From Escherichia coli O157:H7 (GTDB lineage Bacteria; Pseudomonadota; Gammaproteobacteria; Enterobacterales; Enterobacteriaceae), in NCBI RefSeq assembly GCF_013167455.1, contig NZ_CP038328.1: a stretch of DNA of 64,000 nt. The stretch is one strand, 5' to 3'. Every line of letters begins with the position of its first letter. Position 1 is the stretch's first letter. Under the pieces are notes generated by a model. It did no database searches. It was given only the letters and a program-made list of their open reading frames with translations, and was not told the origin of the DNA. A program made the position numbers and the translations under genes. Below, in pieces: positions 5,136 to 36,750 of this stretch.

Positions 5136-6275
5136 ATGGTTTTGCAATCCACGCGCTGGTTGGCGCTCGGCTATTTCACATACTTTTTTAGTTACGGCAT
5201 TTTTCTACCTTTCTGGAGCGTCTGGCTTAAAGGGATTGGTTTAACGCCAGAAACCATCGGCCTGTTATTGGGGGCAGGTCTGGTTGCCCGTTTTCTCGGG
5301 AGTTTGCTCATCGCGCCCCGCGTCAGCGATCCTTCTCGCCTGATTTCCGCCTTGCGCGTGCTGGCACTGCTGACACTTCTCTTTGCTGTCGCCTTCTGGG
5401 CGGGGGCGCACGTAGCGTGGCTGATGCTGGTGATGATTGGCTTTAACCTCTTTTTCTCACCGCTGGTACCGTTGACCGATGCACTGGCGAATACGTGGCA
5501 AAAGCAGTTCCCGCTTGATTACGGCAAAGTGCGACTGTGGGGCTCGGTGGCGTTTGTCATTGGCTCGGCGCTGACGGGCAAACTGGTCACTATGTTTGAT
5601 TATCGGGTGATCCTCGTGCTGTTGACGTTGGGCGTGGCATCCATGCTGCTCGGCTTTCTCATCCGTCCGACGATTCAGCCACAAGGGGCAAGCCGCCAGC
5701 AGGAGAGCACCGGTTGGTCAGCGTGGTTGGCGCTGGTTCGCCAGAACTGGCGCTTTCTGGCCTGCGTTTGTTTATTGCAGGGGGCACATGCGGCCTATTA
5801 CGGTTTTAGCGCCATTTACTGGCAGGCAGCTGGCTACTCGGCCTCGGCGGTGGGGTATTTGTGGTCGCTGGGCGTGGTGGCGGAAGTCATTATCTTTGCA
5901 CTGAGTAATAAACTTTTCCGCCGTTGTAGTGCACGCGATATGCTGTTGATCTCAGCGATTTGCGGCGTAGTGCGCTGGGGCATTATGGGAGCAACTACGG
6001 CGTTGCCGTGGTTGATAGTGGTGCAAATTCTGCATTGCGGCACCTTCACGGTCTGCCACCTGGCCGCCATGCGCTATATTGCTGCTCGCCAGGGTAGCGA
6101 AGTCATCCGTTTACAGGCGGTTTACTCTGCCGTCGCGATGGGCGGCAGTATCGCTATCATGACCGTTTTCGCCGGTTTCCTGTATCAATATCTGGGCCAC
6201 GGCGTGTTCTGGGTGATGGCGCTGGTGGCGCTTCCGGCAATGTTTTTGCGCCCGAAAGTTGTTCCCTCATGCTGA
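5136..6275 (+). CDS. hcaT: MFS transporter (putative 3-phenylpropionate transporter)
   Basis: 379 aa multi-pass hydrophobic ORF. Confidence 0.9.
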   Translation: MVLQSTRWLALGYFTYFFSYGIFLPFWSVWLKGIGLTPETIGLLLGAGLVARFLGSLLIAPRVSDPSRLISALRVLALLTLLFAVAFWAGAHVAWLMLVMIGFNLFFSPLVPLTDALANTWQKQFPLDYGKVRLWGSVAFVIGSALTGKLVTMFDYRVILVLLTLGVASMLLGFLIRPTIQPQGASRQQESTGWSAWLALVRQNWRFLACVCLLQGAHAAYYGFSAIYWQAAGYSASAVGYLWSLGVVAEVIIFALSNKLFRRCSARDMLLISAICGVVRWGIMGATTALPWLIVVQILHCGTFTVCHLAAMRYIAARQGSEVIRLQAVYSAVAMGGSIAIMTVFAGFLYQYLGHGVFWVMALVALPAMFLRPKVVPSC

Positions 6276-7737: not shown

Positions 7738-8592
7738 TTAGTTCTGCGGATTCAACGCGCTAAGGATAAAGTTCACCATCTGTTCGCGATAAACGTCGCC
7801 GTGACGATCGGAAAAAGCATCAATGTGTTCGCCATCCGGGATTAGGATCAACCGTTTTGGCTCTTTTGCCAGGCTATACAACTTTTCGCTGTGCTGCCAT
7901 GGGATAACGTGATCAGCTTTACCGTGAATGAGTAAAAGCGGGATCGGGCTGACGCTGGCGATATAATTTTCGCCGCTGTAACTCTCATCAAGTAAGTAGC
8001 CACTGCCGGGGATCATCTGGTTGGCGATGGTTGCATAAGAGGCAAATGTGGAGTCGAGGATCACTGCACGTATGCCTTCACGATCACCCTGACCAATAAC
8101 AGCAAGAATATTCGCCCCGCCAATACTCTGCCCGAACAGCACCAGCCGTTGTGGGTTTACATCACTGCGATGGCGCACCACATTGATGGCGCTTTGCGTA
8201 TCGTCCAGCAATCCGGCCTGGGACGGCGTGCCTTTTGATTTACCAAACCCGCGATAATCAAACATAAAAACGTTGAAATTACGCTCGGGTAACCAACTGA
8301 CCAGCGGCCAGTGGGCGGACATATTTCCGGCATTGCCGTGAGCATGAATGATGGTTGCGATGGCGTTGTCAGCAGGGCCCGTCGAAGAAGGAATAAACCA
8401 GCCTTGCAGACGAGTACCGTCCTTAGCCGTAAATTCGACGGATTCCGCCGACCAGGGGTCGGGACCGTAAATTTTATCGTCAGGATAATAGAAGAAGTTG
8501 ATGGCAACGCGCGGCACTAAATAAACGCAGAAGGCAACAACAAAGAGAATAAACAGAATTTTGGGAACGCGTTTGTTCACTGGCAGTGCCAT
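7738..8592 (-). CDS. yfhR: Alpha/beta-hydrolase (S9 peptidase-like) membrane-anchored protein
   Basis: ORF track frame 7738..8619; internal ATG at 8592 (MALPVNKR...) is preceded by AAGGAAAGG Shine-Dalgarno, the 8619 ATG is not; N-terminal TM helix, GQSIGG nucleophile elbow. Confidence 0.85.
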   Translation of the reverse strand: MALPVNKRVPKILFILFVVAFCVYLVPRVAINFFYYPDDKIYGPDPWSAESVEFTAKDGTRLQGWFIPSSTGPADNAIATIIHAHGNAGNMSAHWPLVSWLPERNFNVFMFDYRGFGKSKGTPSQAGLLDDTQSAINVVRHRSDVNPQRLVLFGQSIGGANILAVIGQGDREGIRAVILDSTFASYATIANQMIPGSGYLLDESYSGENYIASVSPIPLLLIHGKADHVIPWQHSEKLYSLAKEPKRLILIPDGEHIDAFSDRHGDVYREQMVNFILSALNPQN

Positions 8593-11185: not shown

Positions 11186-11296
11186 TAAAAAGTATTCAGA
11201 ATCAGGCCGGGGCGTATCGCGCTCCGTAAACACGGTCGTACATCCAGCCGGTAGCCTGGTTCCTTGCATTGAGTGATGTACGGAGTTTATAGAGCA

Positions 11297-16469: not shown

Positions 16470-17753
16470 ATGACAGAAGCGATGAAGATTACCCTCTCTA
16501 CCCAACCTGCCGACGCGCGCTGGGGAGAAAAAGCAACTTACAGCATTAATAATGACGGCATTACCCTGCATTTGAACGGGGCAGACGATCTGGGGCTGAT
16601 CCAGCGTGCGGCGCGCAAGATTGACGGTCTGGGCATCAAGCATGTTCAGTTAAGCGGTGAAGGCTGGGATGCGGATCGATGCTGGGCATTCTGGCAAGGT
16701 TACAAAGCCCCGAAAGGCACGCGTAAAGTGGAGTGGCCGGATCTGGACGATGCCCAGCGCCAGGAACTGGATAACCGCCTGATGATCATCGACTGGGTGC
16801 GTGACACCATCAACGCACCGGCAGAAGAATTGGGACCATCGCAACTGGCACAGCGTGCTGTTGATCTGATCAGCAACGTCGCGAGCGATCGTGTGACTTA
16901 TCGGATCACCAAAGGCGAAGATCTGCGTGAGCAAGGTTATATGGGGCTGCACACCGTCGGACGCGGTTCAGAACGTTCTCCGGTATTGCTGGCGCTGGAT
17001 TACAACCCAACTGGCGATAAAGAAGCGCCAGTGTACGCGTGCCTGGTAGGTAAAGGTATCACTTTTGACTCCGGCGGCTACAGCATCAAACAGACTGCGT
17101 TTATGGACTCGATGAAGTCGGACATGGGCGGCGCGGCAACGGTTACCGGGGCGCTGGCATTTGCCATTACGCGCGGACTGAACAAGCGCGTGAAGCTGTT
17201 CCTCTGCTGTGCGGATAACCTGATTAGCGGCAATGCGTTCAAGCTGGGCGATATCATCACTTATCGCAACGGTAAAAAAGTTGAAGTGATGAACACTGAT
17301 GCCGAAGGGCGCCTGGTGCTTGCCGATGGTCTGATTGATGCCAGTGCGCAGAAACCGGAAATGATCATTGATGCGGCGACCCTCACCGGGGCGGCGAAAA
17401 CTGCGCTGGGTAATGATTATCACGCGCTGTTCAGTTTTGACGATGCGCTTGCCGGTCGTTTGCTGGCGAGTGCCTCACAAGAGAACGAACCATTCTGGCG
17501 TCTGCCGCTGGCGGAATTCCACCGCAGCCAGCTGCCGTCTAACTTTGCCGAACTGAACAATACCGGAAGCGCGGCGTATCCGGCAGGCGCGAGCACGGCA
17601 GCGGGCTTCCTGTCGCACTTTGTTGAGAACTATCAGCAAGGCTGGCTGCATATCGACTGCTCGGCGACTTACCGTAAAGCGCCGGTTGAACAGTGGTCTG
17701 CGGGTGCTACGGGACTTGGTGTGCGCACGATTGCTAATCTGTTAACGGCGTAA
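16470..17753 (+). CDS. pepB: Aminopeptidase B (M17 family)
   Basis: ORF track frame 16383..17753; start chosen at [10 protein letters not shown] (427 aa); M17 motif NTDAEGRL. Confidence 0.93.
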
Positions 17754-17760
17754 ACTAATA

Positions 17761-17860
<100 letters not shown>

Positions 17861-17895: not shown

Positions 17896-18672
17896 ATGTC
17901 CGAAACAAAAAATGAACTTGAAGACCTGCTGGAAAAAGCAGCAACCGAACCGGCGCACCGCCCGGCCTTTTTCCGTACTCTACTGGAATCCACCGTCTGG
18001 GTGCCTGGTACGGCGGCGCAGGGCGAGGCTGTGGTTGAAGATAGCGCGCTTGATTTACAGCACTGGGAAAAAGAAGACGGCACCAGCGTCATTCCTTTTT
18101 TTACCTCGTTAGAAGCACTTCAACAGGCGGTTGAAGACGAACAGGCATTTGTCGTAATGCCCGTTCGCACATTGTTTGAGATGACCCTTGGCGAAACGCT
18201 CTTCCTTAATGCCAAACTGCCGACCGGTAAAGAATTTATGCCGCGTGAAATCAGTTTGTTGATTGGTGAAGAGGGAAATCCGCTGAGCAGCCAGGAAATC
18301 CTGGAAGGCGGTGAATCGCTGATATTATCGGAAGTCGCAGAGCCGCCAGCACAAATGATTGATTCACTCACCACCTTATTTAAAACCATTAAGCCTGTGA
18401 AGCGTGCTTTTATTTGTTCAATTAAAGAGAACGAAGAGGCACAGCCTAATTTACTTATTGGCATTGAAGCCGATGGTGATATCGAAGAAATTATTCAGGT
18501 GGCGGGAAGTGTAGCGACCGATACATTACCTGGCGATGAACCAATCGATATTTGTCAGGTGAAAAAAGGGGAAAAAGGAATTAGCCACTTTATTACCGAA
18601 CATATTGCGCCATTCTATGAACGTCGCTGGGGTGGTTTTTTGCGTGACTTTAAACAGAATCGGATAATCTAA
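17896..18672 (+). CDS. sseB: Protein SseB (enhances serine sensitivity)
   Basis: ORF track frame 17887..18672; start chosen at MSETKNELEDL (258 aa). Confidence 0.88.
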   Translation: MSETKNELEDLLEKAATEPAHRPAFFRTLLESTVWVPGTAAQGEAVVEDSALDLQHWEKEDGTSVIPFFTSLEALQQAVEDEQAFVVMPVRTLFEMTLGETLFLNAKLPTGKEFMPREISLLIGEEGNPLSSQEILEGGESLILSEVAEPPAQMIDSLTTLFKTIKPVKRAFICSIKENEEAQPNLLIGIEADGDIEEIIQVAGSVATDTLPGDEPIDICQVKKGEKGISHFITEHIAPFYERRWGGFLRDFKQNRII

Positions 18673-19000
18673 AATATGCCGCCCCAAAGGGCGGCATTCG
18701 GGCTTACCTGCTGCTCTGAAGGTTGTTAATCACCAGTAAATTGTCGCCGGAGAGACTCCGGTTATTATTTACCTCGGTTAACAGCGCACCAGAAACAATA
18801 AGTACGATACAGAAGCACCGTATCTTCATTGTGCGGTCCATGCGAAGACCGCATCACGACAGCACCACTGGCGATATTGCCGCGATAGCAAGCACTGTGG
18901 GGTGCCTGTATTTACGGTCATGGAACATTCTTTCCTAAAGCCAGCGCCCGTTTGCGAGACGGCGAAAAGGGCCATTAAGAATAATACTCTCATGTTTGAA
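18670..19000 (-). ncRNA. ryfA: Candidate RyfA-type small RNA locus; boundaries and strand approximate
   Basis: 499 bp tail-to-tail sseB-sseA intergenic region; hairpin at 18677..18695 followed by T-run on minus strand; RyfA is recalled to map between sseA and sseB in E. coli. Confidence 0.3.
18705..18830 (-). CDS. Candidate small hydrophobic protein (41 aa), type I toxin-like (TimP-like?)
   Basis: Hand translation of the minus strand gives MKIRCFCIVLIVSGALLTEVNNNRSLSGDNLLVINNLQSSR; hydrophobic N-terminal 20 aa; no Shine-Dalgarno, and a 7 bp stem (tgcggtc/gaccgca) ends 3 nt before the ATG; below the ORF-track size cutoff. Confidence 0.35.
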
Positions 19001-19125
19001 TAATTACTCTGTTTATTATCTTGGCACAGCCAGGCATAAAAGAGAGTATTTCAACACTGTGGGGTGCCTGCGTTGCTCCGGCAACACAAGTCAACCTGCT
19101 GGAAAGGCCGCGAACCAGACCAGCA

Positions 19126-19158
19126 ATAAAAAACCGCCAAATTCGGCGGTTTTTTATT
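19126..19158. terminator. Bidirectional rho-independent terminator downstream of sseA
   Basis: aaaaaaccgccaaattcggcggtttttt: GC stem flanked by A-run and T-run. Confidence 0.7.
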
Positions 19159-19171
19159 GCCTGTAAAAAGC

Positions 19172-35537: not shown

Positions 35538-36656
35538 ATGCATAACCAGGCTCCAATTCAACGTAGAAAATCAACACGTATTTACGTTGGGAATGTGCCG
35601 ATTGGCGATGGTGCTCCCATCGCCGTACAGTCCATGACCAATACGCGTACGACAGATGTCGAAGCAACGGTCAATCAAATCAAGGCGCTGGAACGCGTTG
35701 GCGCTGATATCGTCCGTGTCTCCGTACCGACGATGGACGCGGCAGAAGCGTTCAAACTCATCAAACAGCAGGTTAACGTGCCGCTGGTGGCTGACATCCA
35801 CTTCGACTATCGCATTGCGCTGAAAGTAGCGGAATACGGCGTCGATTGTCTGCGTATTAACCCTGGCAATATCGGTAATGAAGAGCGTATTCGCATGGTG
35901 GTTGACTGTGCGCGCGATAAAAACATTCCGATCCGTATTGGCGTTAACGCCGGATCGCTGGAAAAAGATCTGCAAGAAAAGTATGGCGAACCGACGCCGC
36001 AGGCGTTGCTGGAATCCGCCATGCGCCATGTTGATCATCTCGATCGCCTGAACTTCGATCAGTTCAAAGTCAGCGTGAAAGCGTCTGACGTCTTCCTCGC
36101 TGTTGAGTCTTATCGTTTGCTGGCAAAACAAATCGATCAGCCGCTGCATCTGGGGATCACCGAAGCGGGTGGCGCGCGCAGCGGGGCAGTAAAATCCGCC
36201 ATTGGTTTAGGTCTGCTGCTGTCTGAAGGCATCGGCGACACGCTGCGCGTATCACTGGCGGCCGATCCGGTCGAAGAGATCAAAGTCGGTTTCGATATTT
36301 TGAAATCGCTTCGTATCCGTTCGCGAGGTATCAACTTCATCGCCTGTCCGACCTGTTCGCGTCAGGAATTTGATGTTATCGGTACAGTTAACGCGCTGGA
36401 GCAACGCCTGGAAGATATCATCACTCCGATGGACGTTTCGATTATCGGCTGCGTGGTGAATGGCCCGGGTGAGGCGCTGGTTTCTACACTCGGCGTCACC
36501 GGCGGCAACAAGAAAAGCGGTCTCTATGAAGATGGCGTGCGCAAAGACCGTCTGGACAACAACGATATGATCGACCAGCTGGAGGCACGCATTCGTGCGA
36601 AAGCCAGTCAGCTGGACGAAGCGCGTCGAATTGACGTTCAGCAGGTTGAAAAATAA
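35538..36656 (+). CDS. ispG: 4-hydroxy-3-methylbut-2-en-1-yl diphosphate synthase (MEP pathway)
   Basis: 372 aa ORF; C-terminal Cys ligands CPTCSR...C. Confidence 0.94.
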
Positions 36657-36750
36657 TAACGTGATGGGAAGCGCCTCGCTTCCCGTGTATGATTGAACCC
36701 GCATGGCTCCCGAAACATTGAGGGAAGCGTTGAGGGTTCATTTTTATATT
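36657..36750 (+). ncRNA. sroE: Possible SroE sRNA (3'UTR-derived, ispG-hisS intergenic region)
   Basis: Assigned by position only: SroE is recalled to lie between ispG (gcpE) and hisS; hairpin gggaagcgcctcgcttccc is present. Confidence 0.3.

Follow-up and report, generated by a model that had tools for sequence, protein, structure and literature searches.

The sseB-sseA intergenic region contains an exact direct repeat

The window, by which we mean the whole stretch of DNA analysed here, comprises 64,000 nucleotides of contig NZ_CP038328.1 from Escherichia coli O157:H7. Within it, sseB ends at 18672 on the plus strand and sseA lies on the minus strand from 19172, and the region between them holds two small genes that are divergent and do not overlap. 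The first is timP, the mRNA of which was formerly described as the ryfA small RNA (sRNA) and occupies 18671-18975 on the minus strand. The second is timR, predicted to encode an antitoxin sRNA of ~105 nt at ~19055-19160 on the plus strand, a homologue of RyfB and STnc2070. A 16-nt sequence, CACTGTGGGGTGCCTG, is present once in each of them, and we are highly confident that this direct repeat is the pairing site of TimR and timP in the timP-timR (ryfA-ryfB) type I toxin-antitoxin (TA) locus between sseB and sseA.

Both copies of the repeat are exact and read on the plus strand, at 18893-18908 and 19055-19070, with a start-to-start spacing of 162. A preliminary description of this sequence had recognised the exact 16-mer pair, but it placed the first copy at 18894..18909 and the spacing at 161, both of which are off by one. 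It also located the pair within the RyfA region, which holds for copy 1, inside the ryfA/timP RNA, but not for copy 2, which lies 80-95 nt upstream of the 5′ end of that RNA. No further copies with two or fewer mismatches were found on either strand of the 64-kb window. As had been proposed, such a pair is unlikely by chance: about 3 × 10^-5 exact 16-mer direct-repeat pairs are expected in the 521-bp intergenic stretch, and no match was found in 100 dinucleotide-preserving shuffles. Nor is the motif a common genome-wide k-mer, the possibility against which the earlier proposal was to be judged, as none of 5,426 complete E. coli genomes has more than one match to the 40-mer around either copy. 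The 16-bp direct repeat is not a chance product.

Repeat copy 1 forms a hairpin in the timP 5′ untranslated region

The timP transcript matches the Rfam family RF00126 (ryfA) at 323.2 bits (gathering score, 80), covering model positions 1-296 of 296, and consists of a 5′ untranslated region (5′UTR) with four stem-loops (SL1-SL4), a coding sequence, and a terminator. The coding sequence (18704-18829, minus strand) specifies a 41-aa small toxic inner membrane protein, MKIRCFCIVLIVSGALLTEVNNNRSLSGDNLLVINNLQSSR. This open reading frame (ORF) scores 88.6 bits against NCBIfam NF040796 (toxic_TimP, cut-off 45), and timP carries a RefSeq annotation in the nearest complete genome, an O157:H7-like E. 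coli that differs from the window by one base over 3.5 kb. The intrinsic terminator (18676-18697, minus strand) was found by a terminator scan and is also the 3′ hairpin of the Rfam model. A putative -10 box, TATTAT (18981-18986, minus strand), can be read 6 nt ahead of the first base of the RNA (18975), and GTATTAT or GTACAAT boxes are present at the equivalent place upstream of the anchor in other loci (see below).

On the timP RNA, repeat copy 1 (minus strand) reads CAGGCACCCCACAGUG and spans +68 to +83, ~64 nt upstream of the start codon. It holds the ‘CACCC’ variable region and makes up most of SL2, a hairpin with a 7-bp stem (CAGGCAC/GUGCUUG) and a CCCACA loop that is present both in the Rfam consensus and in the minimum-free-energy fold; the 5′ arm, the loop, and the first three bases of the 3′ arm all belong to the repeat. 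This position corresponds to the SL2/TimR site of Salmonella (PMC11228461), and by homology copy 1 is the putative TimR-binding site of the window.

Folding of the timP 5′UTR gives the SL2, SL3, and SL4 hairpins, of which SL4 stands directly 5′ of the AUG (+147), with its 3′ arm ending ~3 nt before it. In the minimum-free-energy fold the SL3-loop heptamer GCCAGUG (+104 to +110; 18866-18872, minus strand) pairs with CGCUGGC at +30 to +36 (18940-18946), and the two heptamers match the M2 and M2′ sites of Salmonella (PMC11228461, PMC13000454). As modelled by this fold, the potential for a seven-base-pair SL1-SL3 pseudoknot is present in the timP sequence.

Repeat copy 2 coincides with the predicted 5′ end of TimR

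No Rfam family matches TimR at threshold, and we delimited the gene from homologue alignments, placing the 5′ end by promoter geometry. The alignment comprised the window and 16 other loci (three E. coli alleles, E. whittamii, Citrobacter, Superficieibacter, Erwinia, Pantoea, Rahnella, and Yersinia). Conservation reveals a timR promoter at 19021-19049 on the plus strand, with a -35 box TTGGCA at 19021-19026, a 17-nt spacer, and a -10 box GAGTAT at 19044-19049 in which A2 and T6 are invariant across the alignment. In all 17 aligned homologues the variable repeat copy starts 5-7 nt past the -10 box, at the predicted transcription start, which in the window would fall at ~19055-19057 judging from the promoter position. 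A consensus promoter scan did not report this promoter because its -10 box agrees with the consensus at only three of six bases; on the plus strand the scan returned a match at 18975-19004.

The -35 box is TTGACA in all 16 other aligned homologues, and the window alone has TTGGCA. The G responsible, at 19024, is the single base by which the window differs from its nearest complete genome, and none of the 5,426 complete E. coli genomes contained a match to a 40-mer centred on it. Either the antitoxin gene has acquired a promoter-down mutation private to this strain, or the base is a sequencing error.

From 5′ to 3′, the predicted TimR consists of a seed, hairpin 1 (GCGUUGC..GCAAC), hairpin 2 (GCUGG..CCAGC), and a terminator. 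The seed is repeat copy 2, CACUGUGGGGUGCCUG (19055-19070, plus strand), which as RNA is fully complementary to copy 1. The fold has a z-score of -4.05, and in the centroid fold the first 23 nt are unpaired, leaving the seed single-stranded. The sRNA body is conserved (GCUGGAAAGGCCGC...ACC.GACCAGC), with compensatory changes in both hairpin 1 and the terminator among 16-17 homologues. The intrinsic terminator (19123-19160, plus strand) is a perfect-stem hairpin recognised by its inverted repeat (19-nt arms, 95% complementary), its fold, and its conservation. Because A and U tracts stand on both sides of the hairpin, the terminator is probably bidirectional and would then also stop sseA transcription coming from the opposite strand. 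The TimR body and terminator (19077-19158, plus strand) gave a sub-threshold match to Rfam AgrB, the antitoxin sRNA of dinQ in another divergent type I TA system; at 30.7 bits against 40 and lying largely over the terminator, it may reflect terminator similarity only.

The region between the two genes has a further symmetry of its own. An inverted repeat, AATACTCTC... / ...GAGAGTATT, at 18983-18998 and 19035-19050 puts the divergent -10 regions in mirror symmetry. The CGCGT and TGTTT alleles of E. coli (see below) have a different inverted repeat, ACTCTCTTTT / AAAAGAGAGT, around the timR -35 box (~645-680 in locus L004), and the inverted repeat is missing from the aligned Citrobacter, Rahnella, and Yersinia sequences. 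This promoter element could be an operator for some regulator, or a DNA or RNA hairpin.

Complementarity is conserved in position and co-varies across enterobacteria

Since timP and timR are transcribed away from each other with no overlap, complementarity between their RNAs shows as a direct repeat in the DNA. In the window the repeat amounts to 16 perfect Watson-Crick pairs between the 5′ end of TimR and timP SL2, beyond which one mismatch is followed by three more pairs (U-G, A-U, and A-U), and the predicted energy of the duplex is -39.6 kcal/mol. Homologous loci were retrieved with the pattern GANGCGGTCNNNGCANNGACCGCAC, which derives from the conserved SL4 hairpin and is unrelated to the site, taking one genome per species. 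This gave 19 Enterobacterales loci, and the set of 22 loci used below consists of pattern-retrieved loci and E. coli alleles. In each locus we searched for pairing runs, free of gaps, between the 140-nt timP 5′UTR and the antisense strand of the 420 nt upstream. RNAduplex had also been applied to these whole regions, but it returned long, meaningless composite duplexes and was dropped in favour of gap-free runs and 30-nt duplexes.

The longest pairing run measured 12-24 nt in 20 of the 22 loci, which include E. coli alleles, E. whittamii, and the six other genera named for the timR alignment. The run always began 49-57 nt before the SL4 anchor. In 19 loci the two copies stood 146-162 bp apart; in K-12 the cognate copy is the distal one, and the spacing is 481 bp. 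The repeat is strongly conserved in position. Its sequence turns over between taxa, with CCCCACA, GTCTCA, GTTTCACA, ACCGTA, GACCTC, AACCTA, AGACTA, ACTCTC, and others at the site.

For the analysis of the helix itself, the loci were aligned without gaps and anchored on conserved flanking motifs outside the site. Standard pairs were formed in 89% of cells, compared with 76% in shuffles and 27-49% in slid controls, and 11 of the 23 pairs showed a compensatory change (shuffle mean 7.1, slid controls 2-7). Cells changed on both sides numbered 55 in the observed alignment, against 13.5 ± 3.3 for shuffles, of which none out of 500 reached that value, and 4-14 for slid controls. Within the helix core (columns 10-23), the DNA differences between the two copies were all compatible with G-U pairing, giving 10 wobble cells and no mismatches. 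Differences restricted in this way point to selection on RNA pairing rather than to DNA-level homogenisation or protein binding.

The SL4-derived pattern also matched 16 non-enterobacterial contigs, from Boseongicola and Silicimonas metagenome-assembled genomes, Planctomycetes, and others (among them L013, L015-L017, L019, L021, L029-L031, L034, L036-L039, and L041). As only ~2 chance matches were estimated, not all of these are due to chance, and they may represent an unrelated conserved hairpin in Rhodobacterales.

The repeat as the TimR-timP pairing site

The anatomy of the locus, the perfect complementarity of the two copies, their conserved position, and their compensatory co-variation were all obtained in this analysis, and together they argue strongly for a TimR-timP pairing site. 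Among the roles first suggested for the repeat were the interaction regions of a toxin mRNA and an antitoxin sRNA, and this suggestion is borne out, with copy 1 as the TimR-binding site in SL2 of timP and copy 2 as the 5′ seed of TimR. The idea that each copy lies in a separate RNA is upheld as well, the two RNAs being the timP transcript and the predicted TimR, read from opposite strands. The sequence features that characterise timPR are all present in the window: an RF00126 toxin mRNA, a TimP ORF, a divergent sRNA gene with its promoter and terminator, conserved complementarity, and the pseudoknot sequence. The overlapping cis-antisense organisation of hok/sok or ibs/sib is absent, as the genes do not overlap and the complementarity extends over only ~16-20 nt.

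We propose the following course of regulation, in which the steps after pairing are taken from the Salmonella homologues. The timP gene would be transcribed leftward (minus strand) from ~18975, and timR rightward (plus strand) from ~19055, the latter from its own sigma-70 promoter. The unstructured 5′ end of TimR, CACUGUGGGGUGCCUG, would then invade SL2 of the timP mRNA at its loop and 5′ arm (+68 to +83). By analogy, the resulting duplex of ~16-20 bp would open SL2, and formation of the SL1-SL3 pseudoknot, which is needed for translation, would be prevented or the pseudoknot destabilised. This would favour an inactive conformation in which the Shine-Dalgarno (SD) sequence is locked in SL4, and the 41-aa membrane toxin TimP would not be translated. 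When the level of TimR drops, timP mRNA could take its active fold. Toxicity of TimP on overexpression and repression of its translation by TimR would, on the same analogy, be expected for the allele of the window.

Several considerations weigh against this interpretation, or at least reduce the force of single observations. With exact matching, the run of 16 nt in the window exceeds the shuffle maximum of 11, but once G-U pairs are allowed the shuffle maximum rises to 15, so that the single locus is barely beyond it. What carries the interpretation is the conserved position of the copies together with their co-variation. An initial search for the best pairing run was used to locate the TimR copies, which introduces a bias toward pairing; this bias is limited because the distance from every copy to conserved, independent anchors is fixed. 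The aligned sequences are also phylogenetically related, so that fewer independent events lie behind the data than the cell counts suggest. In this strain, finally, the 5′ end and expression of TimR are deduced from promoter geometry and homologues, and the G in the -35 box could weaken timR transcription.

A different possibility is that the copies are paired operators through which a DNA-binding protein controls the two divergent promoters, a role that the preliminary description had also raised as a protein-binding site. Two identical sites ~15 helical turns apart do flank the divergent promoter region, and the site has partial dyad symmetry (CAC...GTG). A conserved regulator would require a conserved site, yet the central 6-8 nt are hypervariable, both from one species to another and among E. 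coli alleles, and still the copies match within each genome. What differences there are between copies are limited to G-U-compatible transitions, which preserve RNA complementarity and are meaningless to protein-DNA recognition. Copy 1 also sits 67-82 nt inside the timP transcript, away from the promoter. In Salmonella, compensatory RNA mutants account for the regulation (PMC7667032). We therefore consider the operator explanation very improbable.

We give equally little credence to the repeat as a functionless relic of segmental duplication, as would follow from the earlier suggestion of duplicated sRNA modules, or as a sequence kept identical by gene conversion. The locus is tandemly duplicated in some strains, including the ryfA1/ryfA2 pair of S. 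dysenteriae (PMC5333039), and deletions in Citrobacter amalonaticus and Yersinia aleksiciae (see below) indicate that the repeats can recombine. Against duplicated modules, similarity between the copies stops abruptly at the 16-24 nt site, with unrelated flanks. A stretch of 16-24 bp is also very short for efficient homologous gene conversion. Unlike a decaying relic, the repeat keeps the same position from Escherichia to Yersinia despite the turnover of its sequence, and the wobble-only differences point to selection at the RNA level. Short repeats do occur in genomes, but this is the sole point in favour of a chance coincidence, which the expectation and shuffles given above, and the recurrence of the repeat at the equivalent place in 20 of the 22 loci, make vanishingly improbable.

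Allele classes and locus arrangements

With the repeat read as the TimR-timP pairing site, the diversity of the locus within E. coli can be described in terms of matched site and seed. There are at least three allele classes, in which the timP site and TimR seed switch together. In the CACCC class of the window and O157, the timP site is CACTGTGGGGTGCCTG (plus-strand DNA) and the TimR seed is identical, with the timP 40-mer found in 349 genomes and the TimR 40-mer in 576. The CGCGT class, represented by L004, has the 17-nt timP site CGCTGAGACGCGCTTGC with an identical seed at a spacing of 160 (1,806 timP and 4,532 TimR genomes), and the TGTTT class of K-12 has the timP site GCTGTGAAACACCTGC and the TimR seed GCTGTGAAGCACCTGC, which form one G-U pair (1,971 and 2,020 genomes). 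These counts, from the 5,426 complete E. coli genomes, are lower bounds, as megablast needs an exact word of 28 nt, and they were not used as a strict test of co-occurrence. In 30-nt calculations, predicted energies were -36 to -42 kcal/mol for cognate duplexes and -15 to -30 kcal/mol for non-cognate ones.

The CACCC allele of the window is a minority type that is typical of O157 and its relatives, and it has sub-variants. In E. coli loci L012 and L044 there is an A-C mismatch in the site (timP CAGACACCCC against a TimR seed with GCCUG), leaving a perfect run of 12, and in L042 (O145) the perfect run has moved by 2 nt and comprises 15 nt plus a G-U pair. Such sub-variants probably explain why the TimR 40-mer was found in more genomes than the timP 40-mer of this class.

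A degenerate third copy of the 16-mer, CATTGTGCGGTCCATG, is present at 18827-18842 with 12 of 16 matches, where it overlaps the 3′ arm of SL4 and the start-codon region and covers both in-frame AUGs of timP (MDRTM...). About 0.02-0.08 matches of this kind are expected by chance. We rejected it as a real third site: the region is near-invariant across taxa, whereas the pairing site is hypervariable; the CGCGT allele, compared base by base, agrees with it at just 8 of the 16 positions; and TimR could pair there over no more than 4 consecutive nt. The similarity is probably a coincidence between two GC-rich hairpins.

Some loci contain more than one copy of one or both genes. K-12-type loci (L002, 301-1140; also L006) have a single timP of the TGTTT class but two TimR genes, of which the promoter-proximal one has a non-cognate CGCGT seed (two mismatches and three wobbles) and the cognate TGTTT one lies ~320 bp further toward sseA. 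For pairing with the TGTTT timP, the energy predicted for the proximal CGCGT TimR is -30.5 kcal/mol, against -35.8 kcal/mol for the cognate one. Since the TimR-CGCGT 40-mer is found in far more genomes than the matching timP site, this orphan CGCGT TimR arrangement is probably common to ~2,000 of the 5,426 complete genomes. Full tandem timP-timR duplications with an 87-bp sseB fragment between the copies are present in strains ampC_0069 (L003, 820-2015) and AHM21C2872I (L043), and the tandem copies differ in seed, as TGTTT with CGCGT and TGTTT with CACCC, respectively. These duplications resemble ryfA1/ryfA2 of S. dysenteriae. In E. coli P276M (L006, 500-1290), sseB is a frameshifted pseudogene, and the 3′ half of timP, with the coding region and terminator, has been swapped for unrelated sequence, while the 5′UTR with SL2 and the two TimR genes are kept.

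Other loci have lost sequence between the repeats. In the sampled genomes of C. amalonaticus (AUH_CA_2023_1; L020, ~8020-8190) and Y. aleksiciae (159; L035, ~5279-5440), the ~160 bp between the copies have been deleted with the junction inside the repeat, which leaves one hybrid copy and fuses the TimR body antisense to timP SL2. Both promoters and timP SL1 are lost, and in Y. aleksiciae part of the pairing site is missing as well. The direct repeat at the pairing site appears to act as a deletion substrate. Neither the orphan TimR arrangement nor the repeat-mediated deletions are mentioned in the passages searched of the timP/ryfA literature.

The orphan TimR arrangement may reflect insulation or cross-talk between timPR copies left behind by cycles of tandem duplication and loss. 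It is tempting to extend this to a picture in which the SL2 loop and TimR seed are a fast-evolving specificity code that governs insulation or cross-talk among paralogous timPR copies, with the repeat providing a route to locus inactivation, but we regard this picture as speculative and more doubtful than probable.

Significance and neighbouring features

The finding itself is of small import, because the complementarity has been described since 2017-2020 and the mechanism was analysed afterwards. The locus is a worked example of how a short exact direct repeat, divergent promoters, and a small hydrophobic ORF together form the DNA signature of a divergent type I TA system, a signature that a scan of raw sequence can detect. 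The cross-species co-variation, drawn from 19 enterobacterial loci of an unbiased pattern scan and several E. coli alleles, provides independent confirmation of the published model. Of possible interest for the evolution of type I TA systems are the allele-specific seeds, the widespread orphan TimR, the repeat-mediated deletions, and the private -35 mutation.

Other RNA elements of the window lie outside this locus. They are the iscRS stability element at 11186-11295 (plus strand, 127.8 bits) and the sroE sRNA at 36656-36747 (plus strand, 116.6 bits), along with a sub-threshold match to the REP-like naRNA4 between pepB and sseB (17748-17792, minus strand).

Comparison with known systems

The complementarity of TimR and timP, the allele types, and the specificity of RyfB1 are already known and published. 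Fris 2017 (PMC5333039) reported that in S. dysenteriae a divergent transcript of ~100 nt lies upstream of each ryfA copy, RyfB1 at ryfA1 and RyfB2 at ryfA2. The 16-17 nt of complementarity between RyfB and RyfA overlap a 5-nt ‘variable region’ of the types TGTTT, CGCGT, CCCCC, and CACCC, and RyfB1 specifically down-regulates RyfA1 (PMC5333039). Andresen 2020 (PMC7667032) found that ryfA encodes the toxin TimP and that in Salmonella the 5′ end of TimR pairs with 18 nt of the timP 5′UTR, as supported by compensatory M6 mutants and in vitro translation. Complementary sequence and a terminator were present upstream of timP in all enterobacteria examined there, and TimR transcripts of ~100 nt have been seen both in S. 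dysenteriae (PMC5333039) and in Salmonella (PMC7667032). The TimR site was subsequently mapped to SL2, where binding destabilises the pseudoknot (Eleftheraki and Holmqvist 2024, PMC11228461), and release of the SD from SL4 has been ascribed to a site 1-2 / 1-3 / 2-4 structural switch (Eleftheraki et al. 2026, PMC13000454).

The closest counterpart of the locus in the window is timP-timR of Salmonella Typhimurium, which has the same order of sseB-timP-timR-sseA, the same RF00126 and TimP families, divergent non-overlapping genes, SL1-SL3 pseudoknot heptamers, and an SL4 that sequesters the SD. It differs in its perfect stretch of 18 nt, compared with 16 in the window (plus one mismatch and three pairs), in its seed, which is ‘CACCC’ in the window, and in the length of TimP, which is 38 aa rather than 41. 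The RyfA1/RyfB1 and RyfA2/RyfB2 pairs of S. dysenteriae are the same genes under older names, and the CACCC of the window is among their four variable-region types. There they form two tandem copies as opposed to the single one of the window, and Fris et al. took RyfA for a non-coding RNA that regulates ompC, not for a toxin mRNA (PMC5333039).

The divergent, non-overlapping architecture is also shared with tisB/istR-1, shoB/ohsC, zorO/orzO, and dinQ/agrB, an analogy cited in PMC7667032. In these four pairs, complementarity of ~18-21 nt lies far upstream of the toxin ribosome-binding site and is likewise visible at the DNA level as a direct repeat. Their toxins and RNAs are unrelated to those of timPR, and their toxin mRNAs must be processed nucleolytically and rely on standby or upstream-ORF mechanisms. 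Unlike these systems, timP is controlled by a purely structural switch that is independent of processing (PMC11228461, PMC13000454).

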